64,000 nt of DNA from Polyangiales bacterium (GCA_965227405.1 OZ245758.1:2868338-2932337); one strand, 5' to 3'; shown: positions 6,060 through 63,413, counted from the first letter of the stretch. The notes: a model not told the origin generated them from the sequence alone. Numbers and translations: made by a program.

Positions 6060-8657
<2,598 letters not shown>

Positions 8658-8863
8658 CTCAGCAGTCCTCTTAGAAGTGTTCTCTTCGAAGTGGTGGTCG
8701 CCGGCTTCGATTCTACGCGTTGCATCCTAAGCATCGCGAAGAAGACCGGTTTGCGTCGAGGGGCTATATCTCGTCGCCAAAGCAAACTAAGCACGCCCGT
8801 TCGGGGGTCAATGCCCCCACGCGTGCTGCTCAGTGCGAAACCTCAGCGTGCTAGGTAACGCTG

Positions 8864-10018: not shown

Positions 10019-10075
10019 ACGGACGTTACGTCGAAACTTCGATCTTCTCGGCGCACCTCTCCACAATTTGGTTTC

Positions 10076-12759: not shown

Positions 12760-12794
12760 CTCCCTCCCGCCGTCGTGTTCGCAGCTTTCGGGGC

Positions 12795-14258
12795 GTGGGT
12801 CGTCCCGTCGGTGCTGTGGTCATGGGACTTGGCGGTGCGATCGCGCTTTGTGGCGCGACCGGCATGATCTGGGATGCGGTCGCGCCCAACGCGGACCTGC
12901 CGAGCGGTGGTGCGATGACCACGCTTGCAGCGGCTGCAGTGACGGTCGGAATTGGTGCCGCGGTGTTTGCGTGGGGACGGCAACAGCAAACTCTGACGCG
13001 TCGTGAAGCGTTGCTTGCCGTTGCGTTGATCTGGATCGCCGCCGGTGTGTGCGGCGGATTGCCCTACTGGTTTGGTGCGAGCATGTCGCCCGCGGATTCG
13101 TTCTTCGAATCGGTGAGCGGGCTGACCACGACAGGCGCAACGGTCATCACCGATATCGAAGACCGCCTGTCACGTCCGCTCTTGCTCTGGCGTTCGATGA
13201 GTCAGTGGCTTGGCGGTATGGGTATCGTCGTCCTCTTCGTTGCGATCTATCCGAGCTTGGGCGCGGGTTCGAAACGTCTCTACCGCGGTGAAGCACCGGG
13301 CGCGCAGGTCGAAGGCTTTCGCCCACGCATGTCCGAAACGTCCGTGACGCTGTGGAAGATCTACGCGGCGTTCACGATCTTGGAAGTGATCATCCTGAGC
13401 TTGCTCGGCATGGATGTCTTCGAAGCCGTGTGCCATTCGATGACGACCATGAGCACCGGCGGATTCTCCACGCGCGATGCGAGTGTGGGTGGTTTCGGCG
13501 TGGCGTCGTACGAGTGGACCATCAGCGTGTTCATGCTGATCGCCAGTGTGAACTTTGGGCTCTACTACCGATTGCTGCGCGGTCGTTCGCTGCGCTCGGT
13601 CGTGCGCGATATCGAGCTGCGCGCGTTTGGGCTCATCGTGTTGGTCGCCACCGCGATCTTCGCCGTACTCAACTATCGACTTCATCCGGAGCCGGTCGAG
13701 TCGCTCCGCTATGCGCTCTTCATGACAGCGACCACGGTTTCGAGCACGGGCTACGGCACCGACGACTACACGCAATTTCCGGTGCCTGCGTTTGGAATCA
13801 TGTTGGCGGTGATGTTCATCGGTGGGTGTTCCGGTTCGACCGCCGGCGGCATCAAGGTCGAACGCATCGTCATCCTGCTCAAACAAACGTTCGCGCAGAT
13901 CAAACGGAGCTTTGAACCCACTGCAGTGCACGTTGTGCGACTCGGAAAATCAGTCGTGCCTGCGCCGGTATTGGCCGACGTCGCCAGCTTCTTCGTCGTG
14001 TACATGATCACGATCGGTGTCGGTGTGCTGCTGGTCGCATCGGTTGAGTCGATTCCGATCACCACCGCGTTTGGCGCGATGCTCACCTCGGTCTCGAACA
14101 TGGGTCCGGCACCCTTCCATGATGCCGCCGGGTTGTCCGACAACTTCGCGAGCTATGGCGGCGCGACCAAGATCTTCTTTGCTGCCGCGATGCTGCTCGG
14201 TCGTCTGGAGTTCTTCACCTTGCTCTCTCTTCTTTTGCCCGGGTTCTGGCGCCGATGA
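12795..14258 (+). CDS. trkH: potassium transporter TrkH
   Basis: 487 aa polytopic membrane protein with repeated selectivity-filter-like segments (TTTGATV, STGGFS, SSTGYGT, CSGSTAGGI) typical of TrkH/KtrB. Its stop overlaps the next start (ATGA). Confidence 0.8.
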   Translation: MGRPVGAVVMGLGGAIALCGATGMIWDAVAPNADLPSGGAMTTLAAAAVTVGIGAAVFAWGRQQQTLTRREALLAVALIWIAAGVCGGLPYWFGASMSPADSFFESVSGLTTTGATVITDIEDRLSRPLLLWRSMSQWLGGMGIVVLFVAIYPSLGAGSKRLYRGEAPGAQVEGFRPRMSETSVTLWKIYAAFTILEVIILSLLGMDVFEAVCHSMTTMSTGGFSTRDASVGGFGVASYEWTISVFMLIASVNFGLYYRLLRGRSLRSVVRDIELRAFGLIVLVATAIFAVLNYRLHPEPVESLRYALFMTATTVSSTGYGTDDYTQFPVPAFGIMLAVMFIGGCSGSTAGGIKVERIVILLKQTFAQIKRSFEPTAVHVVRLGKSVVPAPVLADVASFFVVYMITIGVGVLLVASVESIPITTAFGAMLTSVSNMGPAPFHDAAGLSDNFASYGGATKIFFAAAMLLGRLEFFTLLSLLLPGFWRR

Positions 14259-17200
14259 GCGAACACGAAGACGAGACGCCGGAGGAACCGGTGAGCGAAG
14301 ACGAGACGGTCGAATCGACAGAGTCGGTTCAGGAGGACACCGGCGCCGAGCACAGCGACGAAGACCACGGTGATCACGCCGAGGATGATCACGGACACGG
14401 ACATGGTCATGGTGACCACGACGACGAGCATGGTGGTCACGGGCACGGTGAAGGCGCGACGTTCCGTCAGGCCACGATTGTCACGCTACTCGTTGCCGCG
14501 CTTCTCTTGCTGCACCGATTTGGCGACGCCGGCGGCTCGGGGCAGTTCGATCCGACCGCGATGTTGGCGCTCGGGTTCGTCGTGTTGGCGAGCTTCACGA
14601 TCGGTCACCTGGTCGACGTCATCAAGTTCCCCCACATCACCGGCTACCTGCTTGCCGGCATGGTGTTCGGGCCTTCGATCGGCGGCCTGCTCGACGATCT
14701 GCTGGAGATCCATCTGTGGGAGCCCTTCAACGAAGGTGTTCTGAACGACACGATCATCAAGCAGCTCAGTCCGCTCGAAACGCTGGCCGTTGCGCTCATC
14801 GCAATCACAGCCGGCGGTGAGCTCAAACTCGAGACACTACGCTCAGGGCTGCGATCGATCTTTTCGATCCTCGTGGTGCAGCTGATCTTCGTGCTCGGCG
14901 CAACGGTCGGACTCTTCTACCTGATCAGCGGTTCGATCCCGATGCTCGCGCTGCCAGGACTCGGCGAGATCAGTAGCTCAGCCATCGTGCCCATTGGCTT
15001 GACGCTTGGTGCGATCGGTTTTGCGACCTCTCCTGCGGCCACGATCGCGGTCATCAACGAAACCGGCGCGAAGGGCCCGATGTCGCGCACGGTGCTGAGC
15101 ACCGTCGTCCTCAAAGACGTCTTCGTCGTCATCATGTTCGGCATCTTCTCGGCGTTGGCTGTCCAAGCCATGGGTGGCGCGACCGAGGGCAATCTCGCGA
15201 TGGAGCTGCTGGTCCACATCGGTGGCTCAATGCTCGCGGGTGTGGTGCTGGGTGTCGCGCTCGCGCTTTACCTGCGCTTCGTCAACGCCGAGTTGATGCT
15301 GTTTATCGCCGGTACGGTTTATCTCGGCTCGTATCTGTCGTCGCAACTGCACCTCGATCCGGTCCTTGTGTTCCTGGTCGCTGGATTCGTGGTGTCGAAC
15401 TTCTCACGCCACGGCGAAACGCTCATCCACACGGTCGAGCGTCTCTCGATGCCGGTGTACGTGGTGTTCTTCACGCTCGCGGGCGCGAAGTTGCACCTGC
15501 ATGAGGTCATCCACGCGTTCTGGTTCGCGCTCGCGTTGGTGCTTGCTCGTATCGTTGCGATCTACCTGGGTGTGCGACTCGGTGGCTGGATCGGTCGTGC
15601 CGACGACGCGACCAAGAAACACGGTTGGATGGGCTTCGTGTCGCAAGCAGGAGTCGCGATCACGCTAGCCAGTTTCGTGAAGCGAGACTTTGGTGCACAG
15701 GGTGAAGCGCTTTCGAACTTGTTGATCGCTGGTGTTGCACTCAACGAGATCTTGGGTCCGGTTCTGCTCAAGATCGGATTGAGTCAAGCGGGCGAAACGC
15801 GAGCTGCAAAACAACAAGCCGCCGAACTCGCCGAAGCCGAAGAGGGCGAAACCAAGATCGAGATCGAAGCGTGGCCCGAGCCGGTCGACGATGTCGCGTG
15901 GGGTCCCCATCTCGCTGGCGCACTCGGTCGGCAGATTCGCGAACTCGAACACGACCTCAAAGCGAGCGTTCGTGACGTGGCCATGGGTCCGATGGAGACC
16001 TTCCGCGAAGACGTCGAACAGTTCTTCAAGGAAGTGCGCCGTGACTTCTTGCGCATGCATCGTCGCTTGTTGGTGGCCGCGCGTACGTTGCCCGAAGACA
16101 GCGAAGAACAGATCGCAGCGCGTGCAGAGATCGCCCGTCGTTTGCGCGGCGAGCAAAAGGAGTTGGCAGAGCGCTGGCGCTCCGTCGTCCTCGCGCGTGT
16201 GGCCCAACTGGGCAAAGAACCGCCCTGGACTCCTGAGTCGATCGTCGAGGCGCTGGATGGCGCAGTGGATCGGGTCGCGACCACCGTGGAGGTACCCTGG
16301 TCGGAACGCAGTTTCACAGCTCGCGAAGACGATGGTCGTCTTCAAGCTGCACAACGTCGTTGGCTTCGGATGCGCCGAGGGACGCGCCGGCTCTTTGGCC
16401 GCGACATGCCACCGCGTGTGTTGGCGCTTCGGGATCTCGCACGCTTTCACCTCAACTTTGAAACCCCGCCTCGTCTGGAAGGAGTGGCTGCGCTCTTTGT
16501 GGCTGCCGAACAACAAGTTGCGGGTCGAACGCGGCTGATCTTCGACACGATCGTGCGTTCGTACGACGACTTGGCTGACGCGATCGCCGACGACGACCAG
16601 CTGGACCTGGTCGACGCGTTGACCATGGTGCGCGCCGACATCGAGGTTGAGCTCGACTTGGCCACCCAAGAGGTTGGGCACATCGCACACGATGGTTCGT
16701 TGCGTACCGCACGCATTCTTTCGCGCGGACTGCGTGACGTGAAGGACGAGTCGGCGATCTACGGCACCTTCGACCTCCCGGAACGAGCACGTCGGAGCAG
16801 TCGCGGTCTTCGTGAACGCGTGCAAGCGCTGGACTTGTTGACGCACACGCTGACTCGCTTGCGACGTTCGTCCGGTGGCGAGCTTGCGCTGCTTGCGATG
16901 GAGCTCGAACTCGTGGGACTCGAAGCACAGGTCAAGGAGGCACGCGCGGAGCACGTGACGCGTCTCGAAGCGGAGGTGCAGCGGCGTGCAGTGCACCAGC
17001 TCGAACGCGTGGCCGATCAAGTTCGCTCGGCGTCCGACGAGATGTTGGAGGCGTTGGAGAAGGCCGAAGACCGAGACGAACTTGCGGCGGGGCTTCACGA
17101 AATCTCGCAAGCGACGGAGAAAGTTGCCGGCGAAGCGGCACGCATCGTGCGCGAGATGCGCGACGAGCTGCTGGACGATCAGAAGTTTGCACAGCTGCTG

Positions 17201-48524: not shown

Positions 48525-49499
48525 GTGCAGATGGTGTATGCGCTCATCGACCAGGCGTTTGCCCGAGCGATGACGCCGTCGAGACGTCTTTACGCCGACG
48601 GGTTTGGCGATCGAGATCGCCTCGAGTCGTTGGTGCAGGGTGTACGCGAACTCGGAGCAGATCCGCCTGACCCGATCGACATCGCGTGGTCTTCACCTCG
48701 GACGCGTCTTGGAGTCGAGGTGACGCGTGGGACGTACCCATCGCCTGCATGCGAAGTGCTTCCTCCGGAAAGTCAGCGCGCGGTGTTGGAACGCTGGGTT
48801 CCCCAACCGAATGCACCGCACTGTCTGATTCTCGCAACCACCGGTGAAGAGGGATTCACCAATCGTCGGCTGCTCGCGATGTGGCTTGCTCGAAAAGGTG
48901 TCGCAAGCGTGATCGTGGAGAACCCGTACTACGGAGAGCGTCGTCCACGAAACCAAGTCGGTGCGGCGGTGCGAACCGTCGCGGATCAGTTTGCGATGAA
49001 CCTCGCGACAGTGATCGAAGTCCGTTCGTTGCTGGCGCATTTCGCGGAACAAGGTCTTGAAGTCGGTGCGACCGGGTTCTCGCAGGGTGGCATGATGGCG
49101 GCGTTTGGTGCTGCGCTGTCCGACTTTCCGGTTGCGGTCACACCACGCGGTGCAGCGTGTCGAGCGGAGAGTGTGTTCACGCGTGCGGCACTTGCGACCA
49201 CGATGCGGTGGGATGTGCTAACGGCCCAAGCCGGTTCGCGGAAAGCCGCCGAGGAGTATTTTGCGCAGTGCTTAGAGCCGGTACGCGTGGATCGACTTCC
49301 ACCGCCGAAGGCGCCGCACCAAGCGATCTTGGTCGCATCGCGACACGATGGTTTCATTCCTCCAAGTGAAGCCGAAGCCCTTCACGCTGCGTGGCCCGGG
49401 AGCGAGCTGCGTTGGCTTTCGGCTGGTCACGTCACGGGATTGGTGCTGCGCCATCCCACGCACCGTCGAGCGATTCTCGATGCGTTTGCGAGGCGCTAG
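48525..49499 (+). CDS. alpha/beta hydrolase fold protein
   Basis: 324 aa with a GFSQGG nucleophile-elbow-like motif. Its stop overlaps the GTG start of the kinase gene. Confidence 0.45.
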   Translation: MQMVYALIDQAFARAMTPSRRLYADGFGDRDRLESLVQGVRELGADPPDPIDIAWSSPRTRLGVEVTRGTYPSPACEVLPPESQRAVLERWVPQPNAPHCLILATTGEEGFTNRRLLAMWLARKGVASVIVENPYYGERRPRNQVGAAVRTVADQFAMNLATVIEVRSLLAHFAEQGLEVGATGFSQGGMMAAFGAALSDFPVAVTPRGAACRAESVFTRAALATTMRWDVLTAQAGSRKAAEEYFAQCLEPVRVDRLPPPKAPHQAILVASRHDGFIPPSEAEALHAAWPGSELRWLSAGHVTGLVLRHPTHRRAILDAFARR

Positions 49500-52400
49500 T
49501 GCCGCGTGAGGTCGTCATCGGAGGTCGCTATCAGCTGATTTCACAGCTGGGTAAAGGCGGCATGGGCGAGGTTTACAAAGCACTCGACCTTACCGAAGAC
49601 CGCGCCGTTGCACTCAAACGCATGTCGGTGGATCGAACGCGTTCCAAAGTTGCGCGAGGCGAACTGCGCTTCCGCCGCGAGTTTCACACGCTCGCTTCGT
49701 TCAACCACCCGCACATCGTGGAGGTGTACGACTACGGCGTCGATTCGACCGGACCCTGGTACACGATGGAGTTGCTGGCGGGGTCCGACCTTCGCGAAGT
49801 GATTCGTGAACGAACACTCGACGTGCGTGAGGTCTGCAGCATTCTCCGAGACGTTGCGTCCGCGTTGGCGCTCTTGCATGCGCGCGGCTTGGTGCATCGC
49901 GATTTGAGTCCCCGCAACGTACGCATCGTCGATGGGCGTGCAGTGCTCTTCGACTTTGGTGTGCTGATCGATGCAGGTGTCACGGGCGAGGTTGCTGGAA
50001 CGCCGGCCTACATCGCGCCGGAGATGCTCTACGGACATCCGATCGACCACCGCACCGACCTCTATGCGTTGGGGGTGCTCGGGTACGCGATGCTCACCGG
50101 CGAGGTTCCCTACGCGGCGCGTGAACTCGTCGAGCTCATTGGGTTGTGGAGCGTGCCCTTGGTGCATCCCTCCGAGTACGTGGATGTGCCCGAGGGCTTG
50201 GAAAGCTTGGTGATCGACCTGCTGCGACTCGAGCCTTTGGGTCGTCCTGCGTCTGCGGCCGTGTTGATCGACAAGCTTACTGCGCTGGGTGATCTCGACC
50301 CGGATCCGGAGCTTGCGGTTCAACCGGGTTATGCGCCCACCGCTGCATTGGTCGGTCGCGAAGACGAAGTCGCAGTCTTGGAAACTCAACTCCAGGCAGT
50401 GGTGGATGAGAACGAGAGCCGCGCGTTTTACGTCGAAGCCGAGTCGGGCACTGGCAAGAGCCGCCTGCTCGAAGAGTTGGCGATTCGCGCGAAGCTGCAA
50501 GGTGCACGATGTCTCACCGTGAACTGCGAAGACGCGGACGCGGAGCAAGGTGGTTCTCCCTTCGCCACGATCGCCGGACTGTTGCGTGCGGCGTTCGTCG
50601 CCATGCCGGAAGAAGCGTACGAAGCGTGCGAACCGGATGCGCCTTTGCTCTGTCGGGTGTTCTCCACAGTGCGGCGGCGGTTTCCGCATATCGATCCTGA
50701 GGCGGAGTCCGGCGAACCTGCAGAGGACCGCATGCGTTTGCAGCGCGCCGTGCTGCACGTGATTCAACGAATGGCGTTGAGCGGTCCGCTTGTGGTGTTG
50801 GTCGACGATATCCAGCGTTGTGACGAAGCCAGTGCTGCAGCTCTCGCGAGTTTGGTGCACCGCAAGAGTCGCGGATTGTTGTTGGGGTTCGCTCGACGCT
50901 TGCGTGAACGGGTGCGCGCGACTGCCGCTGTCGCGTCGTTGGCGACGATCGAAGCGCGCATTCTGCTCGAAGGTTTAGACGAAGCTGGGGTCGAAGCGCT
51001 GCTCCGGTCGCTCTTTGGCGACGCCACGCACATTGGTCGACTGGCCAAGAGCATGACGCGTGCCACTGCGGGAAGTCCGTTGTTGTGCGCGGAGTTGGCA
51101 CGTCACTTCGTGGACGAAGGGGTGATTCGCTATGCCAACGGAACGTGGGTGCTTCCCAAAGATGCACCCGAAGCATTGCCCGACTCGTTGGCTGGCGCGA
51201 TGGAAGCTCGCGTCGAAGCGCTGCCGCCGATCGCCCGTTCGATCGGTGAGTTGCTTGCGGTTCATGGCGGTGAGATGGAACTCGAGCGTGCGGTTGCACT
51301 CATCGAAGGTCTCGCTGTGGATGCGTCGGATGCCGAAGCACGCGCATTTGTCGCGATTGCGGAACTGCGACGTCAAGGCGTGCTGGTCGACTTGGGCGAC
51401 CGTTTTCGCTTTCGTCACGACAGCATTCGGGAAGCTCTGATTCGCAGTGTCGACGATGAACGGTTGGAACTCCTGCATCGCCACGTCGGGGAGACCCTGC
51501 TCGAAGAAGGCACACCGCGCTCGCCGTCCGCGCAAGCGTCGATCGGTTGGCACCTCTACCACGGAGGTCGTCCGCTTGAAGGTGCGGAGCTGTTGGAGAA
51601 AGCCGGTCGCGCACTCTACGAAGCCCAAGCGCTATCCGACTGCATCGCGCCGTTGGAAGTCGCACTCGAGGTTGCCAACAAGCACAACAAAGAACGTTGG
51701 CGTCGAGCGGAGCTCTCGTTCTTTCTTCTGTCTGCAGGCTGGGTCTCGCATCGCGTGACGGGGTGGAAGTACGCGCAACCGGCGTTGTCGTTGCTGGGTG
51801 CCGAATGCGGATTGGCTTTCGCGCGTTCGATTCGCTTCATCGGTTGGTTGCCCGCGATTGTGGTGGGTTTCACGTGGGCCAACCTACGTTGGCTGGCTCG
51901 GCTGGGTCGCGGACCCACACCCTTGAGAGCACTGACGTCGTACGCCGTGGGTTTGAGCTATGCGTGTGCGCTCGCGTACGCGGCGAACCTCAAGAACGAA
52001 CTCGAGGGGTTGATCGGGAAGTACGCACGGCCGTTCAAAGCTCTGCGTGGGATGGTTCCCTACGTGGCGTACCTCGCGCCGGTGGCGATGAGCGACATCA
52101 TCGATGGTCGACTCGGCGACGCAGCGAACAGGCTGACCGAAGTTGTGCGCTTAGTGACCCGCCGCTGGTTCAATCCACTGACGCCCGATGAGAAGCGGTT
52201 GGGCGAAGCAGGTGCGCGTTCGATGCGCGTTCTGGTCGATGTGAACCAGTTCGAAACAGAGCGATTGTTCGGTGACCTCGAACGCATGGAAGAACTCGAT
52301 CTGCGGTTCTATGATCTAGCTGCGCAAACTGCGCGGATCGTTCGACATCGATATCGCGGTGAGGAGCGCAAAGCGCGAGCGATCGAACGCGAGATCGAAG

Positions 52401-53296
52401 AGGCATCGCTGCAGCTTGGTTCGTGGTCCACGGAGTTGCAGGTCGTGCTCTTTGCGCACCCGGCGTACGGGATTAACCACGATGTCGAAGGACTGAAGCA
52501 GTGCTTGGATTCGCTGCAACGCTATAAGGCAGAAGGCATGGCCTTCGACGCTCGAATCGGCGTCACACAAGGGGAGATTCACCGCGAACGGGGTGAGTAC
52601 GACCAAGCGTTTGCAACGTTGGAGAAGGCGTACGAAGCCTTGGACGACGACGACGCGTTGATGCGTCAGTTCATTTGCTCAGCGATCGGTCAGACCGCTC
52701 TGGAGGCGTACTGGCACGACGTGGCTGTGCGCTGGGCGAAGGAAGGCATCAGTGTGGGTGATGCGGAACATCAACGCGTGTGGATCCCTCGGCTGCGATG
52801 CATGCGCGTGCTGGCTCTTGCAGAAGACGCACAAGGTGAGCGCGACCAAGCCGTCCAACGCTTGGAGCAAGCCATTGCAAAAGCCGAAGTCATGGAGTGC
52901 CCACCGCTTGCAGGTGAGCTGCACGAAGCGATGGCGCGCATTGCCTTGGCCGACGACGACCGACTTGGGTACGAAGCACACCTCGCGAAAGCCGATGCTT
53001 GGCTTCGACCCACAGAGAACCCAGGTTTGATTGCTGTCGTGGAGCGTTTGATCGCTGCCGGCGAAGAACGACCGGGGCGAAAGATCCGACCGAGCCGGCG
53101 TCGACCGATTACGCGTTCGAGTGCATCGACCATGGACGCGGAGACAATCGGTGCGACGCCGGGATCGATCTCGCGTGTGGAATCGGACGCCGCACTGGAT
53201 GCAGCCACTGTGGCGTCCAAGCCTTCCACGATGAGCGAGGCGCCGGATGCGACTGTAATTAGTGAGGAAAGACCGATTCACGGCGACGAGACTTGA
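49499..53296 (+). CDS. Ser/Thr protein kinase with AAA_16 (STAND) ATPase and TPR/helical repeat region
   Basis: The N-terminal kinase domain has GKGGMGEVYKA, VALK, HRDLSPRN, DFG and APE motifs. An AAA_16 module follows (VGREDEVAVL, Walker A ESGTGKSRLL, VVLVDDIQRCDEAS), then about 650 aa of helical repeats. The GTG start overlaps the upstream TAG. About 1265 aa. Confidence 0.85.
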   Translation: MPREVVIGGRYQLISQLGKGGMGEVYKALDLTEDRAVALKRMSVDRTRSKVARGELRFRREFHTLASFNHPHIVEVYDYGVDSTGPWYTMELLAGSDLREVIRERTLDVREVCSILRDVASALALLHARGLVHRDLSPRNVRIVDGRAVLFDFGVLIDAGVTGEVAGTPAYIAPEMLYGHPIDHRTDLYALGVLGYAMLTGEVPYAARELVELIGLWSVPLVHPSEYVDVPEGLESLVIDLLRLEPLGRPASAAVLIDKLTALGDLDPDPELAVQPGYAPTAALVGREDEVAVLETQLQAVVDENESRAFYVEAESGTGKSRLLEELAIRAKLQGARCLTVNCEDADAEQGGSPFATIAGLLRAAFVAMPEEAYEACEPDAPLLCRVFSTVRRRFPHIDPEAESGEPAEDRMRLQRAVLHVIQRMALSGPLVVLVDDIQRCDEASAAALASLVHRKSRGLLLGFARRLRERVRATAAVASLATIEARILLEGLDEAGVEALLRSLFGDATHIGRLAKSMTRATAGSPLLCAELARHFVDEGVIRYANGTWVLPKDAPEALPDSLAGAMEARVEALPPIARSIGELLAVHGGEMELERAVALIEGLAVDASDAEARAFVAIAELRRQGVLVDLGDRFRFRHDSIREALIRSVDDERLELLHRHVGETLLEEGTPRSPSAQASIGWHLYHGGRPLEGAELLEKAGRALYEAQALSDCIAPLEVALEVANKHNKERWRRAELSFFLLSAGWVSHRVTGWKYAQPALSLLGAECGLAFARSIRFIGWLPAIVVGFTWANLRWLARLGRGPTPLRALTSYAVGLSYACALAYAANLKNELEGLIGKYARPFKALRGMVPYVAYLAPVAMSDIIDGRLGDAANRLTEVVRLVTRRWFNPLTPDEKRLGEAGARSMRVLVDVNQFETERLFGDLERMEELDLRFYDLAAQTARIVRHRYRGEERKARAIEREIEEASLQLGSWSTELQVVLFAHPAYGINHDVEGLKQCLDSLQRYKAEGMAFDARIGVTQGEIHRERGEYDQAFATLEKAYEALDDDDALMRQFICSAIGQTALEAYWHDVAVRWAKEGISVGDAEHQRVWIPRLRCMRVLALAEDAQGERDQAVQRLEQAIAKAEVMECPPLAGELHEAMARIALADDDRLGYEAHLAKADAWLRPTENPGLIAVVERLIAAGEERPGRKIRPSRRRPITRSSASTMDAETIGATPGSISRVESDAALDAATVASKPSTMSEAPDATVISEERPIHGDET

Positions 53297-55902: not shown

Positions 55903-57833
55903 TCACAGGAGTCGGTGGGCACAACAGGGGTGCCTCGTTGAAGCGTCTCCAAGAAACAACGGTATTGGGCTTTGGGTTCTTCCAATTGGAACACCACTTC
56001 GTGTCCGTCTTCGACCGGATCTTGGTTGTACTGAACCACGACTGCAGTCACGTCGTTTTGGTTGCCTGAGGCGGGCAACGCGATCGCTTCGCCTTCTGAG
56101 AACGCCAGATGGTCGCCCAGCGGCGTGAAGTCATACACGCTCGTATCCAGTGCTTCGCCCGCAAGATCCAAGTCGAGCGCGAGGCTCAACGAGTTGGCGA
56201 TGGGCGGAAGGATGTAGTGGTCGATGATCCCCTGCATCATCAGGATGTGCGCGCCGTTCGCTCGAATCGCTTCGGCATACACTGGAGGATCGGCCGACTC
56301 GCCGGCCCACTGAAGCAGCATCATCGAAGGATCGTGTTCGTGGATCTCATACGCGCCGGTCACACCCAAGATGCTTTGAAATCCGCCGCGCACCGGAATG
56401 GGAAGTTGCTTGTGGATGATGTTTTCGATCCAGCTGCCACCCGCCCCGCTGAGAAGCAGCGCACGAATGCGAGGTTCGACCGCAACCGCGAGCGGACTGA
56501 TCGTCGCGCCCATTGAGTGGCCGAACATAGTGAGCTCTGCATCGTCGAAGTGTGCATCCGCAGAACCATCGGGACACATGCTCGCATCGAAGCGAAGGTC
56601 TTCGATCATGCGCGTCGTCAGCGCGAGTTCGAGTGCGGATTGACGCACGTTGTCGCGCGTTCCCGCCATGTTGAGGATGTTGAACACCAACGTTTGTTCG
56701 GCACTCCAGTTCGGTGCACTGGTGTTGCGCATCCCGCCGTGCGGTCCATCAACGCTGATTGCAGCCCAGCCCACACGCGCGAAATCCCTTGCGGGTCCGG
56801 AGCCTTCGTCGATCGCGCTTCCACCGTTTTCTGCACGGACACCACGTTCGACCAAGGGACGGTCGCCGCCTGCACCGGTTCGTGAGAACACGACGATCGG
56901 GTAGCCCTCGGCGGGCATCGCGCCGCGTGGAACGGTGATCAACACGCGCGCTTCTTCGGTTCCGTAGAGTTGCGGTTCACCGCCGACGAACTCGAACGTG
57001 CCACCTTCCAACGTGTTGGGGGGTTCGCCGTGTTGAAACGTTGGCAGCGTGGTTGCACCTTCGAACACACAGAAGTCGTCGAAGGTTTCGACCCACTCCA
57101 ACGCGCGAATCTCGGGCATCGGTTGCGCCAGAATCGCGTCGTAGGCGGCGCGCATTTCCGCAGTTGGATCTTGCGTTCGAAACACCGCGAGTCCGGCGAC
57201 GTCGTCGATACCTCGATCCGAAAGCACACCCAGCGCGTGTTGATAGTCCGCCGAGGCAGTCGCGCTCATGCCTTCGGGAGTTCGACCGCGCTGCAGGTCC
57301 CGCATCGATTGGCTCGGGATCAAGGCATCGCCGGCTGCATCGCGAACCGAGGTCCGAACCACTGCGGCGTAGCGATGGTCGAACGCCAAGGGGCGTCCCT
57401 GCAGTGGAAGAATCGAAAGCAGGTTGGGTGCACCGAAGGGACCGCCGTCTTGTCGAAAGCGAACCTCGATCGGATGCGGATCACTGTCTGCGTCCACATC
57501 GACCAGGAGCACGGGCGCATCCCAACTGCGCATCGGATCGGGATCGGAGTCGGTGCTCGAATCCAAGGGAGCACTCATCGCGAAGTAGATCGTCGAGGTC
57601 GTTCCGAATCCTTGGAGCTCTTCGACGATGTTGATCAACGCAGTCACATCGTTGTCGTTGCGCACGTTGGGAAAGCCAACCGCGGAGGTGTGGCCGTCCA
57701 CGCGCCGGGTCTCGCTCGGGAAGGGCGCGGCGTAGAAGTCGTCGCCGATCTGCGCGTAATCCATCCGTGCAGTGGTGCCTTCCAGAGGCGAGCCGCTACA
57801 CGCCGCAAGCAAGGCGATCCACGTCCAACGCAT
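55899..57833 (-). CDS. alpha/beta hydrolase lipoprotein
   Basis: Start placed at MRWTWIALLAACSG (lipobox). It has the nucleophile elbow GHSMGATIS. About 644 aa with a long N-terminal non-catalytic region. Confidence 0.5.
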   Translation of the reverse strand: MRWTWIALLAACSGSPLEGTTARMDYAQIGDDFYAAPFPSETRRVDGHTSAVGFPNVRNDNDVTALINIVEELQGFGTTSTIYFAMSAPLDSSTDSDPDPMRSWDAPVLLVDVDADSDPHPIEVRFRQDGGPFGAPNLLSILPLQGRPLAFDHRYAAVVRTSVRDAAGDALIPSQSMRDLQRGRTPEGMSATASADYQHALGVLSDRGIDDVAGLAVFRTQDPTAEMRAAYDAILAQPMPEIRALEWVETFDDFCVFEGATTLPTFQHGEPPNTLEGGTFEFVGGEPQLYGTEEARVLITVPRGAMPAEGYPIVVFSRTGAGGDRPLVERGVRAENGGSAIDEGSGPARDFARVGWAAISVDGPHGGMRNTSAPNWSAEQTLVFNILNMAGTRDNVRQSALELALTTRMIEDLRFDASMCPDGSADAHFDDAELTMFGHSMGATISPLAVAVEPRIRALLLSGAGGSWIENIIHKQLPIPVRGGFQSILGVTGAYEIHEHDPSMMLLQWAGESADPPVYAEAIRANGAHILMMQGIIDHYILPPIANSLSLALDLDLAGEALDTSVYDFTPLGDHLAFSEGEAIALPASGNQNDVTAVVVQYNQDPVEDGHEVVFQLEEPKAQYRCFLETLQRGTPVVPTDSCE

Positions 57834-58002
57834 GGAAACCACTCTAAACGCGGTCAGGAATGGCGCCTCCTGGGAACTGAGATTGTGACAACCCAGTTCA
57901 CGGGTCTGTCACCGACTTGACCCTTTAAGCAGGCCGCGTAAGCTAATTACGTGGGGTTTTTGCCCCATTGGCTCACTCTTTGCTCTGCTTTTTCGCGCTT
58001 CG

Positions 58003-58761
58003 ATGTCTGCCGACCTCTTTCAACGTCTCGAGTTCAAGTACCTGATCGACGAGCAGCAGGCCGAACAGGTGCGTCGACACATCGCGCCCTACTGCGTGCC
58101 GGACAAGTTCAACGGTACTGCCGGGCTCGGCTATCCGATTTGGAGCCTGTACCTCGACACGCCTAGCTACGCGTTTCACTTGGCGAAACTGAGGAACGAC
58201 CCCGACCGCGTAAAGCTGCGTGCGCGCACTTATGATGCGACGGGTCCGGTCCACCTCGAGGTGAAGCGCAAGCACGTCGACGTCATTCACAAGACGCGTG
58301 TCGCGGTTCCGCGTGACCAATGGGTGGATGCCGCGCGTGGTTTCGGACCCACGCTGGAGGGTCGCAAGGCTAGCCACTTGGAAGCTTTCGCCCACCTGGC
58401 GGCTCAGTATGGCGCAGAACCCAAGCTACTTGTTCAGTATGAGCGCGAAGCGTACGCCAGCACTGTCGACCAGTATGCGCGCGTGACCTTCGATCGTGCA
58501 GTGCGCGCGTCGGCGCAGCGTTCCTGGCGGATCGAGCCGGATGGTCCCTGGGTGTACTTGGATGCAGGTCGCGAAGGTCGTGTCGAAGGCTTCACGCTGC
58601 TCGAACTCAAAGCTGAACTCTTGATGCCCTATTGGATGGTCGAGCTCGTGCGCACGCTTCGTTTGAAGAATACGGGCTTTTCTAAGTACTCGTCTGGCAT
58701 CATTGCGTCTCGCAACCTCGAGCTCGGTCTCTTCGAGACTCAGCGAGGAATGTATGCCTGA
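58003..58761 (+). CDS. VTC (polyphosphate-polymerase-like) domain protein
   Basis: 252 aa. The N-terminal LFQRLEFKYLIDEQQAEQVRRHIAPYC matches the bacterial VTC-domain start (E-x-K-Y-L), and the conserved Arg/Lys-rich tunnel residues follow. Confidence 0.65.
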   Translation: MSADLFQRLEFKYLIDEQQAEQVRRHIAPYCVPDKFNGTAGLGYPIWSLYLDTPSYAFHLAKLRNDPDRVKLRARTYDATGPVHLEVKRKHVDVIHKTRVAVPRDQWVDAARGFGPTLEGRKASHLEAFAHLAAQYGAEPKLLVQYEREAYASTVDQYARVTFDRAVRASAQRSWRIEPDGPWVYLDAGREGRVEGFTLLELKAELLMPYWMVELVRTLRLKNTGFSKYSSGIIASRNLELGLFETQRGMYA

Positions 58762-59449
58762 GGTACTCGACTCATTGATGGCGTCGTGGAGCACGACGTC
58801 CCAGGTTTCGTTCCTGGACGCCGTTCGGCTGCTGCTTGCAGCGTTCGTGTGCGGACAGGTTCTCGCTTGGTCGTATGAGCGCACCTACCGCGGGCTGAGT
58901 TACTCGCGTTCGTTCGGGCACACCATCGTTCTCATCACGGTGGCATCAGCGGCGTTCGTGATGGCGATTGGGCGCAACTTCTACGCAGGTCTCGGACTGC
59001 TCGGCGTGCTTTCGATGATCCGTTTTCGAACCACGCTCAAGACTCCGCGCGACTTGGTGTTCCTCTTAGGCGGAGCCACCAGCGGTGTGGCAAGCGGTAT
59101 CGATTCGTTGATGGTTGCTGCCGCGGGCACGCTCGCATTTGCCGGTGTGGCGATTTACCTGCACCACGGGCCGCTTGGTGCTCGAAAGCGCTTCGACGGT
59201 GTTTTGCGTTTCCGCGTGGATAGCGAAGCCACGATCGACGAGCCCCTTCGTGGGCTTTTGGCCGACCACTGCCGCCGAACGGCGTTGATGAGTGTTGGTG
59301 AAGTTGCCCAAGGCCGCGAGATCGAGCACACCTACCAGGTCAAGTTCCAAAGTGAACAAGACCGTAGCGATCTGATGACAGCGCTGAGGGAAAAGCTGCA
59401 GGTGCGTGACGCGCGCCTCCTCTTGCAGGAGGTGACGCTTGAGTACTGA
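58754..59449 (+). CDS. DUF4956 family membrane protein
   Basis: Start at MPEVLDS, overlapping the VTC stop. It has 3-4 TM helices and the conserved MIRFRTTLKTPRDLVFLL segment typical of DUF4956, the usual genomic partner of VTC-domain proteins. Confidence 0.6.
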   Translation: MPEVLDSLMASWSTTSQVSFLDAVRLLLAAFVCGQVLAWSYERTYRGLSYSRSFGHTIVLITVASAAFVMAIGRNFYAGLGLLGVLSMIRFRTTLKTPRDLVFLLGGATSGVASGIDSLMVAAAGTLAFAGVAIYLHHGPLGARKRFDGVLRFRVDSEATIDEPLRGLLADHCRRTALMSVGEVAQGREIEHTYQVKFQSEQDRSDLMTALREKLQVRDARLLLQEVTLEY

Positions 59450-60548
59450 TTCCAAGAAGACTCACCCGAAGAAGAAGCGTGTCGAGCTTGATGGCCGCGC
59501 ACTCTCGTTTGGCGTGTTCGTGCTCAGCCTGACCCTCTTGATCGGACTCGAGGTCCAGAGCGCTCCGGATGTCACCGTTGCGGCTGTGGCGCATGCACGC
59601 GCCGTGGAGCATCCTGCCCCCGCGCCGAGCACCGTTCGCGAAGTTCACGTTCAAAACGGTGAGCAGGTCGATGCCGGCACGCTCTTGGTGACGCTGGATG
59701 ACGAGGAGCTTCGTCGTTCGCTGCGCTACTTGGACATCGATATTGCCGTCGCGATCGAAGAAGGCCGTTTGGCTCAGGCACAGGTGGCCGATGAATCGTC
59801 GCGGCAGACCCTTGAAGCCCGGGCGCAACTTCGTGCCGCGATTCGCGATGCGGAGATCGTGCGTGGAGAGGTCGCATCGCACGAAGCGTTGGTCGTGACT
59901 GCGCAGGAAGCCGCCAATCGTGCAGAGACACTCAGCGAACAGCGCTTAGTGCAAAACGCAGCGGCTGAAGATGCACGTCGTCGCTTGGTCGAGATTGAAG
60001 CGTCGCGTTCGGCTGCCGAAGCACGACTGAACGCGGAGCTTCGCCGGTTGCGCCAGACCCAGCGCACCACCGACACCACGTCGAGCGAAGAACTCCTCAC
60101 CGCGACGGTTCGGCTTCACCAGAGTCGCCTCGAGTCGCTGCAGCTTCGTCGCCGTGACACCGCCGAGCAGATCGCACGACTTCAGGTTCACGCTGCGGCG
60201 CCTGGCGTGGTCGCGAACGTGCCTGACATGGGACGTGCGGTGGCGTTGGGTGAAAGCGTTGCGCGTATCGTTCCTCGACGCGCGACCGAGGTTGTGGCCT
60301 ACCTTTCGCCGGAGACCAACCCCGATGCGATCGTTGAAGGTCGTCGTGTGTTGATCGCGCAGGCGGAAGGCGATGCGTGCGCGGGTCAGTTGGTTCGCGG
60401 TGCAGGGGCCGAGGTCGTCACCATGCCCGGTCAAGCAGTGGCTGCGAATCGAATCGCGCCGACCGGTTTGCCCGTTCACGTGGCGCTGCCGCCGGAGTGT
60501 TCGCTCGGTGTCGGTCAGCTCGTGTGGGTGACGCTGGAAACCCAGTAG
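59439..60548 (+). CDS. HlyD-family membrane fusion (periplasmic adaptor) protein
   Basis: 369 aa with an N-terminal TM anchor, a biotin-lipoyl-like segment (HVQNGEQVDAGTLLVTLDD), a long coiled coil and a C-terminal beta-barrel-like region. Confidence 0.55.
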   Translation: MSTDSKKTHPKKKRVELDGRALSFGVFVLSLTLLIGLEVQSAPDVTVAAVAHARAVEHPAPAPSTVREVHVQNGEQVDAGTLLVTLDDEELRRSLRYLDIDIAVAIEEGRLAQAQVADESSRQTLEARAQLRAAIRDAEIVRGEVASHEALVVTAQEAANRAETLSEQRLVQNAAAEDARRRLVEIEASRSAAEARLNAELRRLRQTQRTTDTTSSEELLTATVRLHQSRLESLQLRRRDTAEQIARLQVHAAAPGVVANVPDMGRAVALGESVARIVPRRATEVVAYLSPETNPDAIVEGRRVLIAQAEGDACAGQLVRGAGAEVVTMPGQAVAANRIAPTGLPVHVALPPECSLGVGQLVWVTLETQ

Positions 60549-61735
60549 TGCGTGCACTCAGCTTGGTGGTGCTGCTCTGCGCGTGTGGGGGCAGTCACTC
60601 TCAGTTTCGAGAGCGCGCCAACGCAGCTAGTGCGCCTGTCAGCGACGATCCGAGCGTGCGTGCTGCACAGGCCCGCTTTCGTGCGGCGTCGCATCACGCC
60701 AGCCAACCCCAGGGTTTCGAAGAGATGCAGCTGCGGGTGCAGGACCTCTCTCGCGACGAAGTCGGTGGTCCGGATGGTGTGACCCTTCGAGCTCGTGTCC
60801 CGATCCCGAACCCGTGGGAATCCCGACGCATTCGCCAGTCGCGTGAGCATCGTGTCGAAGCTGCGCTGGCCGACGTGGAACTGACCTCGGTGCGTGCGCG
60901 GGCAGAGCTGTGCACCCGCGTGGTGGACTACACCGCGAGCACTGCGGCACGCGAACTCCAGGACACCTACGCAGCCAAGATGCGCGAGGTGCTCACATGG
61001 GCGGATCGTGTCGCCGAAGCGGGCGTGCTCGACGTGTTGCAAGCCGCGGAACTGACGTTGGAGATTCGACGACGTCTCGCTGGACTTCGAGAGCCCCCGC
61101 CGATCGACGATGAACCGCCCGGAAGTGGCACGCTCATGTCGTTGGATGCTCCAACGGGTGAGCTGCAACGTTCGACCGAGTCGCTGCGCACCTACTTTGA
61201 AAACGGCCATCCGGCGATGAATCTGCACTTGGCCGAAGCGCGTTCGTATCGCTCGTTGGCGCAACGTGAGCGTGCGCGCGTCGCACCGTGGTTTGATTTT
61301 GTCGAAGTGCTCTTTCGTACCGGACAGGGTGCCGGCGCAGTCGAAACGCGCTTGGCCTTCAACATCCCGTTGGCTGTGCGACCGCGACAAGCCGCAGGGC
61401 GGTACGAAGCACTTGCGGACGCGGAAGAGTACGAAGCCGAAGCATCCGTCGCGCAACTGCGACGCGAAGCGGGCCGAGCGTTGGCGGCACTCGCGCACTA
61501 CGAGGAGCGCCTCGAAACGTTGGCGGATCTAAACCGGCATGCGGATCAGGCAATGGCGATTGCCGATCGGGCGCAAGAAGCGGGTGTGGGAGATCCCTCA
61601 GCAGTCAGTGACCTGTATGCAGAGATCTTTGCATCGCGGTCGTTGGTGTTGAGTGCTCGACGCGATGCGAGCCTCGCCGAGTGCGACCTGTTGATGGCGA
61701 CAGGACTGACCGCGCGCGAGTGGCCGCGGGACTAG
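60548..61735 (+). CDS. outer-membrane efflux (TolC-like) protein, tentative
   Basis: GTG start overlapping the HlyD stop. Lipobox-like LVVLLCACGGS. Helical repeats with ELTLEIRRRLAGL-type segments. Only about 395 aa, short for a canonical outer-membrane factor. Confidence 0.35.
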   Translation: MRALSLVVLLCACGGSHSQFRERANAASAPVSDDPSVRAAQARFRAASHHASQPQGFEEMQLRVQDLSRDEVGGPDGVTLRARVPIPNPWESRRIRQSREHRVEAALADVELTSVRARAELCTRVVDYTASTAARELQDTYAAKMREVLTWADRVAEAGVLDVLQAAELTLEIRRRLAGLREPPPIDDEPPGSGTLMSLDAPTGELQRSTESLRTYFENGHPAMNLHLAEARSYRSLAQRERARVAPWFDFVEVLFRTGQGAGAVETRLAFNIPLAVRPRQAAGRYEALADAEEYEAEASVAQLRREAGRALAALAHYEERLETLADLNRHADQAMAIADRAQEAGVGDPSAVSDLYAEIFASRSLVLSARRDASLAECDLLMATGLTAREWPRD

Positions 61736-61744
61736 CTCTAAGAC

Positions 61745-62242
61745 GTGGGTAAGCCGAAGAAGCAGAAGTACGACGAGATGTTGTTCTTCTCGATCGCGAA
61801 GCCTGACGTCGATGCGGTGTTGAGGAAGGTCTTGGACGAACAGCGATACCTACTCGGTGTCGACGTTGTGGAAGAAAACGAGGTTTCGGTCCGGCATGTT
61901 CATTGGAGACGCGACGCACCGCCGATCAAGATCGATGAAGTGACCGGCAAGCTCGCGAAGCTCCGTATCGAGACAGCGCTCGAAGATCTGCAAGAGGTCG
62001 TCGATGCAAATCCCTACGCGTGGTTCACGCAATCTCCGCAGGAGGTGCGCGCACTGCGGCAGAGACTCAAGCAAGCATCCACTGTGGTGCGTTTTCGCCA
62101 CCCCGACGTGGGTATGGGTTGGCGTGGACCGTTCCGGGTGAGTCGTGCGCTTGCGGGCAAGCTTCGCTTCCAGTCAGGCGGAGTGTTGAAGCTCGCCGAC
62201 TACAGCTTCGAAACCCCCGGCGGTAAAGTCATCGGCCGCTAG
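61745..62242 (+). CDS. hypothetical protein
   Basis: 165-aa soluble ORF, last gene before repeat copy C. No domain recognised. Confidence 0.35.
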   Translation: MGKPKKQKYDEMLFFSIAKPDVDAVLRKVLDEQRYLLGVDVVEENEVSVRHVHWRRDAPPIKIDEVTGKLAKLRIETALEDLQEVVDANPYAWFTQSPQEVRALRQRLKQASTVVRFRHPDVGMGWRGPFRVSRALAGKLRFQSGGVLKLADYSFETPGGKVIGR

Positions 62243-63413
62243 GTGTAAATTATGGGGACAGGTTCATTAATGAACCGACCCATGATCGCTAAGCATGCGA
62301 AATTGCTGAAACTGGTGACGGCTCACGTGTGCGTCACGCAAAAGCCACGTGTTCGTGATGAGCCGTTTGGGGGAGTCGCTCGTAGAACCGAGCAGGCGAC
62401 GGCGCGCGCTATCTCCAATTCTCCATCCCCAATTGCCGCGCGCGTCGTCGCCCTCCTTCGAGAGCTACGAGGCTTTGGCTTCGAGCAGCGCTTCGACCGG
62501 GGCAAACCGTTGGGTTAGCTGCGCCATGACGTCGGTCACATCCACGCTCATGCGTTCGCTGAAAAGCGTCAGATCGAGCACCAAGTTGCTGACCGCCATT
62601 TCGATCAGCGACGGCTCGTCGGTCACCACCGCACGGTTGTCGTTGGTTTCCTGCGCGCCACCGACCAACAACTCATTTCGATCGACCAAGAGGATGATCT
62701 TGTGTTCCCAATGTGCGGCGAGCGAGTCGGGGTCGATGTCGTAGGTGAGTGTGCGTCCCACGTTAGGTAACGGTGTAAACGAGAAGAGAGTTACGTCCAC
62801 GCCGCGATCGACCGCATCTTGTAGTGCTTTCTCAAAGTGACGAGCTTCGCGTCCCCAGACCGACGCCACGACAGTGGACTTCGCTTTCTCGATCTTCTGA
62901 ACTGCCTGCTCGAGCATCGCTTCGTACCCTTCCACCGTCCACGTCACCGAAGTGTCGGGCTTGTCGGCGAGACGATCGATGCCTCCACGAAGTGACTCGA
63001 GGCTGCGCGTGAAACGTGTTTCGAGAAGCGCAAAGAGTTTCTCAGGCGCGAGCGGAACGTAGCGTGCTGGCTTTTCTTGAACTGCGTTGATCAGTCCCAA
63101 GCTTTGGAGCCGCTTGAGTACGTTGTAGATGGCCGAGCGCGGCACACCCGATTGCGTCGCCAGTTCATAGCCCGTTGCCGGGTTGGTCTTGAGGAGCGCG
63201 ACGTACGCTCGCGCATCGGTCGCTGTGAAGCCGAGCTGCTTCATCGCGGCGACAACCTTCTCCTCAACCTCCTGGGCCATACGATCGGCATACTGGACTC
63301 TGAAGCGTCACGCAAACATGAGTTACGCCGGAGGCAAGCCAGGTCAGTGTGGTTTCAAGCACTTAGCGATCACGGGTCGGTTCATTCCTGAACCTGTCCC
63401 CGAAATTTACACG
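62243..63413. mobile_element. 1.17-kb element bounded by about 47-bp inverted repeats of the GGGGACAGG-hairpin family (copy C), carrying a TrmB-family regulator gene
   Basis: The left arm is gtgtaaattatggggacaggttcattaatgaaccgacccatgatcgc. The reverse complement of the right arm is gtgtaaatttcggggacaggttcaggaatgaaccgacccgtgatcgc. The arms align with those of copy A (GGGGACAGGTT, palindrome, ACCGACCC, then GATC). The interior has visibly lower GC than the flanks. Confidence 0.6.
62465..63280 (-). CDS. TrmB-family transcriptional regulator
   Basis: 271 aa. The N-terminal winged helix (LGFTATDARAYVALLKTNPATGYELATQSGVPRSAIYNVLKRLQSLGLI) is the TrmB signature, and a C-terminal effector-binding-like domain follows. 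Confidence 0.7.
   Translation of the reverse strand: MAQEVEEKVVAAMKQLGFTATDARAYVALLKTNPATGYELATQSGVPRSAIYNVLKRLQSLGLINAVQEKPARYVPLAPEKLFALLETRFTRSLESLRGGIDRLADKPDTSVTWTVEGYEAMLEQAVQKIEKAKSTVVASVWGREARHFEKALQDAVDRGVDVTLFSFTPLPNVGRTLTYDIDPDSLAAHWEHKIILLVDRNELLVGGAQETNDNRAVVTDEPSLIEMAVSNLVLDLTLFSERMSVDVTDVMAQLTQRFAPVEALLEAKAS

Follow-up and report, generated by a model that had tools for sequence, protein, structure and literature searches.

A conserved VTC-DUF4956-adaptor-lipoprotein cassette from a Polyangiales bacterium and its possible role in the export of polyphosphate

What does a putative polyphosphate polymerase do in an operon with the periplasmic and outer-membrane parts of an export conduit? 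The question is raised by a 64,000-nucleotide stretch of DNA from a Polyangiales bacterium (GCA_965227405.1 OZ245758.1:2868338-2932337), referred to here as the window. On its plus strand, positions 58003-62242 encode a VTC-domain protein (A), a DUF4956 membrane protein (B), a divergent HlyD/EmrA-type adaptor (C), a lipoprotein that is probably TolC-like (D), and a fifth open reading frame (ORF E). No classical exporter gene accompanies them.

The reading preferred here, with a rough probability of 0.45, is that the conserved four-gene unit A to D couples the synthesis of polyphosphate, or of a related phosphate-rich polyanion, to its export across the whole envelope. A, a soluble tunnel enzyme, would use ATP to polymerize phosphate on the cytoplasmic side of the inner membrane. 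It would dock on B, an MgtC-like protein whose basic cytoplasmic loops are conserved and whose C-terminal domain would also face the cytoplasm, and B would provide or gate the inner-membrane passage. C, an adaptor anchored by a single helix, would span the periplasm, and D, as a TolC-like outer-membrane lipoprotein, would be the exit. The cargo, polyphosphate or a closely related phosphate-rich polyanion, would thereby reach the cell surface or the medium, and the membrane potential, inside negative, would favor its outward movement. The eukaryotic precedent is the yeast VTC complex, in which the making of polyphosphate and its transit through a membrane channel are coupled (PMC9911596). A sharper form of the proposal is put forward more tentatively. 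In this form, polyphosphate is secreted across both membranes by a PPK-independent, synthase-dependent system in which a Vtc4-like polymerase and DUF4956 replace the ABC, RND, or MFS pump.

Gene layout and protein families

A preliminary description of this DNA had named four successive ORFs with overlapping stop and start codons, followed after a short gap by a fifth. Direct reading of the sequence bears this out. The five ORFs are as follows:

58003-58761, plus strand: gene A, ATG start, TGA stop, 252 aa, soluble VTC-domain protein
58754-59449, plus strand: gene B, 231 aa, DUF4956 inner-membrane protein
59439-60548, plus strand: gene C, TTG start, 369 aa, divergent HlyD/EmrA-type periplasmic adaptor (membrane fusion protein)
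60548-61735, plus strand: gene D, GTG start, 395 aa, lipoprotein, probably TolC/OprM-related
61745-62242, plus strand: ORF E, GTG start, 165 aa, soluble, without a family match

The A/B junction reads ATGCCTGA and is an 8-nt overlap, with GAGGAA located 3 nt 5' of the B start codon. B and C overlap by 11 nt, and AGGAGG lies 5 nt 5' of the TTG start of C. Both motifs are Shine-Dalgarno-like. At the C/D junction, TAGTG, base 60548 is common to both genes (a 1-nt overlap), and the gap from D to E is 9 nt. All five ORFs show a coding-type GC pattern, with GC3 at 0.66-0.71 and GC2 at 0.39-0.52. From this layout, the A to D genes look translationally coupled. The operon is flanked on its 5' side by a gene for a 647-aa hydrolase-like protein and on its 3' side by a TrmB-family regulator gene (62465-63280). 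Both are on the minus strand, and the unit is therefore bounded on both sides.

Protein A is a putative polyphosphate polymerase, a Vtc4-like triphosphate-tunnel enzyme judging from its sequence. It matches the Pfam VTC family PF09359 with an E-value of 2e-34 and 119.6 bits (cut-off 23) over residues 8-233, corresponding to positions 2-231 of the 235 in the model. When a profile of six homologues was used, yeast Vtc4 (3g3q, E = 0.0066) was the only match among all PDB sequences. R73 and R75 of A align with R264 and R266 of Vtc4 in profile alignments to 3g3q and 5iiq. E201 aligns with the glutamate in LEVK of Vtc4, taken to be E426, and S227-K228 align with the FSK motif. R73, R75, E201, and S227-K228 are invariant in the alignment of six homologues. 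K12 presumably corresponds to Vtc4 K200. The protein has no hydrophobic segment and no signal peptide, as expected of a cytoplasmic enzyme. In Vtc4, the combination R264A/R266A/E426N is the catalytically impaired form that was used for the cryo-electron microscopy structure of the VTC complex (PMC9911596).

Protein B matches DUF4956 (PF16316) with 37.2 bits (cut-off 30.6), and its homologue in L010, one of the related loci designated here by L numbers, scores 40.9 bits. Hydropathy predicts about five transmembrane helices and a soluble C-terminal domain of ~90 aa. Invariant in 19 diverse homologues are T44, Y50, F54, G81, L82, S87, R90, F91, R92, D100, G111, and G115. These positions cluster in two loops that are cytoplasmic by the positive-inside rule, and one predicted cytoplasmic loop carries the motif S-x-I-R-F-R-T-x-x-K-x-x-R-D. 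An hhalign comparison of the 19 homologues with Salmonella MgtC gave a weak match (probability 31%, E = 5e-4, 146 columns), which is no more than a lead. The lead agrees with the literature, where a Streptococcus DUF4956 homologue is described as an MgtC-like transmembrane domain plus an ACT domain (PMC12345266). B had no Pfam MgtC match at E <= 0.1 and no PDB match.

On its sequence, protein C is a divergent HlyD/EmrA-type adaptor with a weak family match. It scores 21.8 bits against Pfam HlyD_3, slightly under the cut-off of 22.2, and also matches Biotin_lipoyl_2; the lipoyl/HlyD_3 motif is located at residues 60-90. A basic N-terminal tail precedes one transmembrane anchor at about residues 17-38 (a single hydrophobic segment, 17-35). 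A profile of seven homologues retrieved EmrA (4tko, E = 1e-5, residues 64-280), LipC, HlyD, and MacA from the PDB. The homologue in L014 is above the HlyD_3 cut-off with 34 bits, and other homologues carry PF25973. Homologues of C are rare, with nine clusters found.

Protein D scores 34 bits against Pfam OEP (PF02321, cut-off 22), and the match covers only residues 273-387, the second of two repeats. All 16 diverse homologues combine a signal-peptide-like N-terminus with a lipobox cysteine, a pattern shared with the OprM/NodT subfamily. Besides the lipobox cysteine, C122 and C379 are invariant in all 16 family members, suggesting a conserved disulfide. The predicted secondary structure consists of two beta-hairpins with a long helical hairpin after each. 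A structure model from a 5-sequence alignment was unusable, with a predicted local distance difference test (pLDDT) score of 50.6, and a 22-sequence alignment raised the score to 68.5. In a Foldseek search with the D model, the top 24 PDB matches are all outer-membrane factors, with alignments over the full length (OprM, OprJ, OprN, VceC, TolC, NodT), and CmeC, SilC, and CusC appear further down the list.

A profile of the D family did not reach TolC in the PDB. An exhaustive HMMER search with the family found 109 representative clusters among 1.84 billion proteins, and canonical TolC was not reached. A family this tiny and sharply bounded fits a dedicated partner better than a shared TolC. 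The lipobox, the OEP match, the secondary structure, and the Foldseek result stand against weak scores, and D is therefore treated as a probable, highly divergent TolC-like outer-membrane lipoprotein. The evidence for it is moderate, and it is the least certain of the domain calls. Of the families named in the preliminary description, VTC and DUF4956 pass their Pfam cut-offs, the adaptor is divergent, and the TolC-like call is upheld in part. Single-sequence PDB searches with A, B, and D returned nothing useful, and NCBIfam and PADLOC gave no informative match for A, B, D, or E. A reading of the locus as a defense system was rejected.

A conserved four-gene unit and the search for a pump

A metagenome scan with the VTC alignment gave 52 loci, and local hidden Markov model searches with de-duplication at 90% identity yielded 39 lineages. 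DUF4956 is encoded directly after VTC in 27 of 30 informative lineages. A C-family adaptor follows DUF4956 in 18 of 21 (L059 instead has a different, Pfam-positive HlyD adaptor), and a D-family gene follows the adaptor in 15 of 17. The complete VTC-DUF4956-adaptor-lipoprotein cassette recurs in many Myxococcota-like genomes; of 17 informative lineages, 15 have it, with VTC identities of 42-62%. The arrangement is not due to chance: dozens of independent contigs have A, B, C, and D in this order, at identities as low as 34% (C) and 42% (A). Wherever the surroundings of a C homologue were examined, again to as little as 34% identity, the genes run VTC, DUF4956, C, D-like, and two Polyangiales metagenome-assembled genomes (MAGs) have them in the same succession. 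Both the C and D families are tiny and were found only in the context of the VTC-DUF4956 cassette.

The cassette also multiplies as a whole. In three Myxococcota MAGs at NCBI (GCA_029935915, GCA_029935975, GCA_029936035), all four genes are tandemly duplicated. Genes for a lamin-tail domain (LTD) protein, a spermine-synthase-like protein of 751 aa, a PMT_2 glycosyltransferase, and a methyltransferase flank the duplicates, which are located as follows:

L064, L065, and L066, positions 7590-11251: first cassette
L064, L065, and L066, positions 12023-15684: second cassette

One locus has a shorter version. At L025:9986-12541, VTC, DUF4956, and the adaptor are present, and no D-like or porin gene was found downstream. 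By this gene content, the outer-membrane partner of L025, if any, is encoded elsewhere.

ORF E, which the preliminary description had counted as an operon member, does not belong to the core. It has no Pfam, NCBIfam, or PADLOC family. The gene caller chose an ATG at ~61784 as its start; the upstream residues KYDE are kept in the L001 homologue, and the GTG at 61745 is favored for this reason. This homologue, in the closest relative, is the only one found: it is 51% identical to E (C: 87%) and lies ~480 nt past the D gene of L001. In the Polyangiales MAGs, the position of ORF E is taken by a DUF3616 gene that overlaps the end of D by 4 nt. E is conserved no further than the closest relative and DUF3616 stands in its place elsewhere; therefore, the conserved unit is made up of four genes, not five, and E was rejected as a fifth component. 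When the five-gene arrangement was looked for in other genomes, it was A-B-C-D that recurred.

The missing pump, already remarked on in the preliminary description, is a constant feature. No ABC, RND, or MFS exporter gene is present in the operon, its flanks, or the window. The only transporters found in the window (TrkH, Na/H-exchanger, and SBF ion transporters) are more than 40 kb away and were rejected. Related loci were scanned for Walker-A/LSGGQ motifs and multiple transmembrane segments, followed by Pfam and NCBIfam. No ABC, RND, or MFS exporter was recurrent across the ~25 related loci, and clustering of all neighbor ORFs within 6 kb revealed no recurrent exporter. A pump gene just past the equivalent of position 62242 was also looked for in the related loci, and none was found.

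Individual candidates were rejected in turn. The ABC protein of L019/L015 is of the ABC-F translation-factor type. The ABC genes of L023 are nitrate/sulfonate-type and Liv-type importers plus an RbbA-like ABC-2 pair 3 kb off, at this single locus. A DASS symporter in a related locus was likewise dismissed. L053 alone has an ABC exporter in the same gene run, and this low-GC locus is without an adaptor or outer-membrane gene.

C and D could instead serve a conventional tripartite pump or type I system, with the ABC, MFS, or RND transporter encoded elsewhere and A and B merely co-regulated phosphate-metabolism genes. The best structural relatives of C (EmrA, LipC, HlyD, and MacA) all work with MFS or ABC transporters, and TolC-type proteins are often encoded away from their pumps. 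In this genome, close examination covers the ~13 kb that precede the operon and the 1.8 kb that follow it. In known systems, however, it is the outer-membrane factor that is usually unlinked, whereas adaptor genes nearly always adjoin the transporter gene. In this case, 15 of the 17 diverged lineages have A to D side by side, in many instances with codons that overlap, and no exporter recurs in them. The cassette duplicates as a four-gene unit, and the C and D families were found only with it. A distant pump is accordingly given a low likelihood, and the export route formed by A to D themselves is preferred.

Neighboring genes, cargo, and flanking DNA

Neighbors of the cassette in related loci provide clues to the cargo. 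Together with the conservation of the cassette, a phosphate-selective porin at the D position in one clade and the frequent secreted CotH/LTD and phytase-like neighbors strengthen the case for export. In the L038/L039 clade, D is replaced by a Porin_O_P protein of the OprO/OprP family (E = 2e-47) that has a Sec signal and is encoded 3 nt after the adaptor gene:

L038:4080-5513: Porin_O_P gene, with an LTD-family protein encoded downstream on the other strand
L039:5818-7272: Porin_O_P gene, with an LTD-family protein encoded downstream on the other strand

The Pseudomonas OprP/OprO family is selective for phosphate and polyphosphate. By analogy, a porin of this family at the D position ties the cassette to the passage of phosphate anions through the outer membrane.

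DUF3616 or phytase-like proteins are encoded beside the cassette in seven loci, divergently upstream in three of them:

L010:12294-13283: DUF3616/phytase-like gene
L011:12296-13282: DUF3616/phytase-like gene
L001:7109-8047: DUF3616/phytase-like gene
L020: DUF3616/phytase-like gene
L021: DUF3616/phytase-like gene
L025:8714-9913: DUF3616/phytase-like gene
L059:2227-3228: DUF3616/phytase-like gene

The same neighbors could be read as signs of uptake or sensing. External polyphosphate or pyrophosphate would be imported or sensed and then hydrolyzed or processed by the VTC-like enzyme, or A and B would regulate phosphate homeostasis in the manner of MgtC. Pseudomonas OprO and OprP are uptake porins, and the phytase-like/DUF3616 neighbors could free phosphate from external substrates. 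The tunnel-enzyme superfamily includes tripolyphosphatases, and DUF4956 resembles MgtC, which acts on phosphate homeostasis. On the other hand, outward transport is the only kind in which HlyD-type adaptors and TolC-like proteins are known to take part. A is closest to the polymerase Vtc4, keeps the catalytic residues, and is cytoplasmic by its lack of a signal peptide or hydrophobic segment. No periplasmic binding protein or importer is conserved beside the cassette. Uptake or sensing is the least probable of the alternatives, and outward transport is favored.

The second group of neighbors is made up of secreted CotH-kinase and LTD proteins. CotH-kinase/LTD proteins are encoded immediately after D in L014 and L029, and in L019 and the related L015 the gene after D encodes an LTD-only relative without a detected CotH domain. 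In L044, L048, and L064-L066, genes for CotH/LTD or LTD proteins lie a short distance upstream of the cassette. The CotH-kinase proteins occur in high-GC and low-GC loci and are fused to LTD, MAM, or beta-helix domains. One of them has 2010 aa, and L014 has two copies. Large secreted members near VTC/DUF4956 are the following:

L014:7611-11536: CotH-kinase protein
L029:3940-9969: CotH-kinase protein
L044:1318-4206: CotH-kinase protein
L053:7098-9974: CotH-kinase protein
L058:729-3647: CotH-kinase protein

In the proposed route, the co-encoded CotH-kinase/LTD and phytase-like/DUF3616 proteins could act on or with the exported cargo. The more distant loci L053 (34% GC) and L058 (49% GC), which are lower in GC, have CotH-VTC-DUF4956 without an adaptor or outer-membrane gene. 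This difference in gene content would fit the adaptor and outer-membrane genes being an adaptation to two membranes. The co-directional run L053:3929-11482 encodes a TagF-like glycerophosphotransferase, an ABC exporter (ABC_membrane and ABC_tran), a CotH/beta-helix protein, VTC, and DUF4956. Its composition suggests that the run is connected with teichoic-acid-like polymers on the surface of a low-GC organism.

These associations raise the alternative of surface-polymer modification. A and B would produce either a phosphate donor or a polyphosphate bound to a primer (capped or conjugated). With CotH-type kinases, this product would serve to modify an exopolysaccharide, protein, or lipid, and C and D would export or anchor the conjugate. 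Gram-positive Pel loci contain CotH-VTC-DUF4956 trios, and S. intermedius mutants in DUF4956 or CotH have lower Pel levels and aggregation (PMC12345266). The CotH/LTD genes around the cassette, the TagF-like and ABC exporter genes co-directional with the trio in L053, and the PMT_2 glycosyltransferase and methyltransferase genes flanking the duplicated cassettes all point the same way. Extracellular Bacillus polyphosphate resists exopolyphosphatase, which suggests capped ends, although B. cereus reportedly has no VTC4 homologue.

Against this alternative, CotH, LTD, and polysaccharide genes are all absent from the neighborhood of the operon in the window, and only A to D travel together as a core. 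The OprO/P porin that substitutes for D points to a small or linear phosphate anion, not a bulky conjugate. Surface-polymer modification appears unlikely, and it ranks first among the alternatives to export of the polyanion itself.

Several points weigh against the proposed export route. Among eight D relatives tested for OEP, those of L010 (28.6 bits) and L044 (25.6 bits) pass and five have no match. The TM-scores of the D Foldseek matches are ~0.3, and the hairpins of the model have low confidence. C scores 35-37 bits against NCBIfam type_I_hlyD and EmrA, far under the curated cut-offs. VTC/DUF4956 pairs had been described at the outset as linked to polyphosphate handling; the link turned out to be one of annotation only, with no experimental paper found in the searched literature. 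The same literature yielded no experimental paper or published enzyme assay on any bacterial VTC-domain protein. Tunnel enzymes of the VTC superfamily also include hydrolases (tripolyphosphatases) or cyclases. MgtC, to which B shows some likeness, is a regulator or scaffold, not a channel. A pump may be encoded elsewhere in the 9-Mb genome. The Porin_O_P variant is a poor fit to a simple TolC-like duct because docking of adaptors onto OprO/P-type porins is not known. The window itself has no CotH, LTD, DUF3616, or porin gene.

The DNA on either side of the operon contains further elements:

57885-57912, plus strand: imperfect inverted repeat GTGACAACCCAGT / ACGGGTCTGTCAC, identified by a repeat search just 5' of the promoter-like hexamers
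57917-57944, plus strand: promoter-like TTGACC-16 nt-TAAGCT, ending 58 nt 5' of the A start codon
62261-62276, no strand assigned: perfect 16-nt palindrome GGTTCATTAATGAACC, 19 nt past the E stop codon and facing the 3' end of the convergent TrmB-family gene

The core of the inverted repeat, GTGACAAC...TTGTCAC, is kept in the 87%-identity relative L001, and the adjoining bases differ. The repeat is a possible operator. L001 and L002, relatives whose C proteins share 87% identity with that of the window, both retain the repeat (GTGACAAC...GTCAC) and have the same hexamers TTGACC and TAAGCT, and the spacer differs. The element is called promoter-like on the basis of this conservation; a stricter consensus promoter scan did not report it. 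The palindrome is not a classical terminator because no T-run follows it. Rfam gave no match within 57000-63000.

A terminator-like hairpin with a T-run (CCGCGTAAGCTAATTACGTGG GGTTTTTGCC) is located at 57934-57963 on the plus strand, in the gene A leader, where it shares bases with the putative -10 hexamer. Terminator-like sites are no more frequent in the region than in shuffled sequence.

Two further genes were observed near the cassette. In one clade, a gene ~1.2 kb 5' of the cassette on the opposite strand encodes a ~760-aa protein that combines 13 predicted transmembrane helices with a methyltransferase domain resembling spermine/spermidine synthase:

L022:333-2624: ~760-aa spermine/spermidine-synthase-like protein
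L027:1223-3514: ~760-aa spermine/spermidine-synthase-like protein
L048:6451-8745: ~760-aa spermine/spermidine-synthase-like protein
L063:1285-3576: ~760-aa spermine/spermidine-synthase-like protein
L064:4069-6324: ~760-aa spermine/spermidine-synthase-like protein

In the window, ~5 kb 5' of the operon, a fusion of a Ser/Thr protein kinase with an AAA_16 ATPase region is encoded at 49391-53296. Its longest ORF has 1301 aa and the called gene 1265 aa, and TetR-family and short-chain dehydrogenase genes come next. Kinase genes are also found near the cassette in L001 and L011.

Comparison with known systems

Extracellular polyphosphate has been reported for several bacteria. A 2026 Bacillus cereus preprint describes PPK-independent extracellular polyphosphate made via an uncharacterized pathway, and it counts the origin of bacterial extracellular polyphosphate and the way it is exported among the open questions. 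The cassette is a compact, testable hypothesis for both. If it is correct, this would be the first genetically defined bacterial route for PPK-independent polyphosphate synthesis and threading across two membranes, with a new kind of inner-membrane partner for adaptor/TolC-type conduits. Synthesis-coupled passage of polyphosphate through a membrane, known from eukaryotic VTC, would also be bacterial. The VTC/DUF4956 pair, which is widespread in bacteria, would gain a function, as would its association with secreted CotH kinases, and a handle on phosphate cycling by environmental Myxococcota would be gained. No published description of the VTC-DUF4956-adaptor-lipoprotein arrangement was found in the searched literature.

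The only functional data on bacterial VTC-domain/DUF4956 proteins are genetic links to Pel-dependent aggregation. The S. intermedius Pel trio SIR_1594, SIR_1593, and SIR_1592 (CotH, "polyphosphate polymerase," and DUF4956) has the same VTC and DUF4956 pair, and CotH is encoded near metagenomic cassettes as well. The trio loci differ in that they have no adaptor or outer-membrane gene and are embedded in polysaccharide operons, and the window has no CotH. The authors who described the trio reported none outside Pel loci (PMC12345266); here, the VTC-DUF4956 pair is part of a separate, self-contained four-gene unit.

A Porin_O_P protein of the OprP/OprO family stands at the D position in the L038/L039 clade, not in the window. 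OprP and OprO are known as uptake channels, and a partnership with adaptors is not known for them.

Synthase-dependent exopolymer systems (cellulose Bcs, alginate, Pel, and poly-N-acetylglucosamine), compared here from established knowledge, share the concept of polymerase-coupled passage through an operon-encoded route. Their synthase is a glycosyltransferase, and their export path consists of a TPR scaffold and a beta-barrel porin. The cassette would instead handle an inorganic polymer by way of an adaptor and a TolC-like protein, and it has no cyclic di-GMP receptor.

With tripartite exporters (EmrAB-TolC, HlyBD-TolC, LipBCD, and MacAB-TolC), C shares an N-terminal anchor, a lipoyl-like motif, and a long helical region. 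D is a lipoprotein whose best sequence and 3Di (structural alphabet) matches are to the OprM/TolC family, and the adaptor gene is located directly ahead of the outer-membrane gene. The cassette differs from these exporters in having no MFS, ABC, or RND gene at the locus or at related loci and in the classical porin found at the D position in one clade. C and D score under or barely at curated cut-offs, and the D family is separate from canonical TolC. The defining transporter was looked for and is absent, and the cassette is for this reason not a classical tripartite pump.

The eukaryotic VTC complex (yeast Vtc4/Vtc3/Vtc1) contains the same Pfam VTC domain as A, with equivalents of R264, R266, and E426 and the FSK motif kept. 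The logic is also alike, in that a soluble tunnel enzyme feeds polymer into a membrane passage, as proposed for the cassette. The similarity between yeast Vtc4 and A is remote at the profile level. The eukaryotic complex has an SPX sensor domain, whereas A consists of the VTC domain only. Its catalytic domain is fused to or partnered with a 3-helix Vtc1-type domain, and A is unfused with a DUF4956 partner of about five helices plus a soluble domain. The eukaryotic target is the vacuole lumen, and the proposed target of the cassette is the exterior, across two membranes. The lack of an SPX domain and the different membrane partner place the cassette outside the eukaryotic VTC architecture. By analogy, it would combine the workings of the eukaryotic VTC complex with those of an EmrA/HlyD-TolC conduit.

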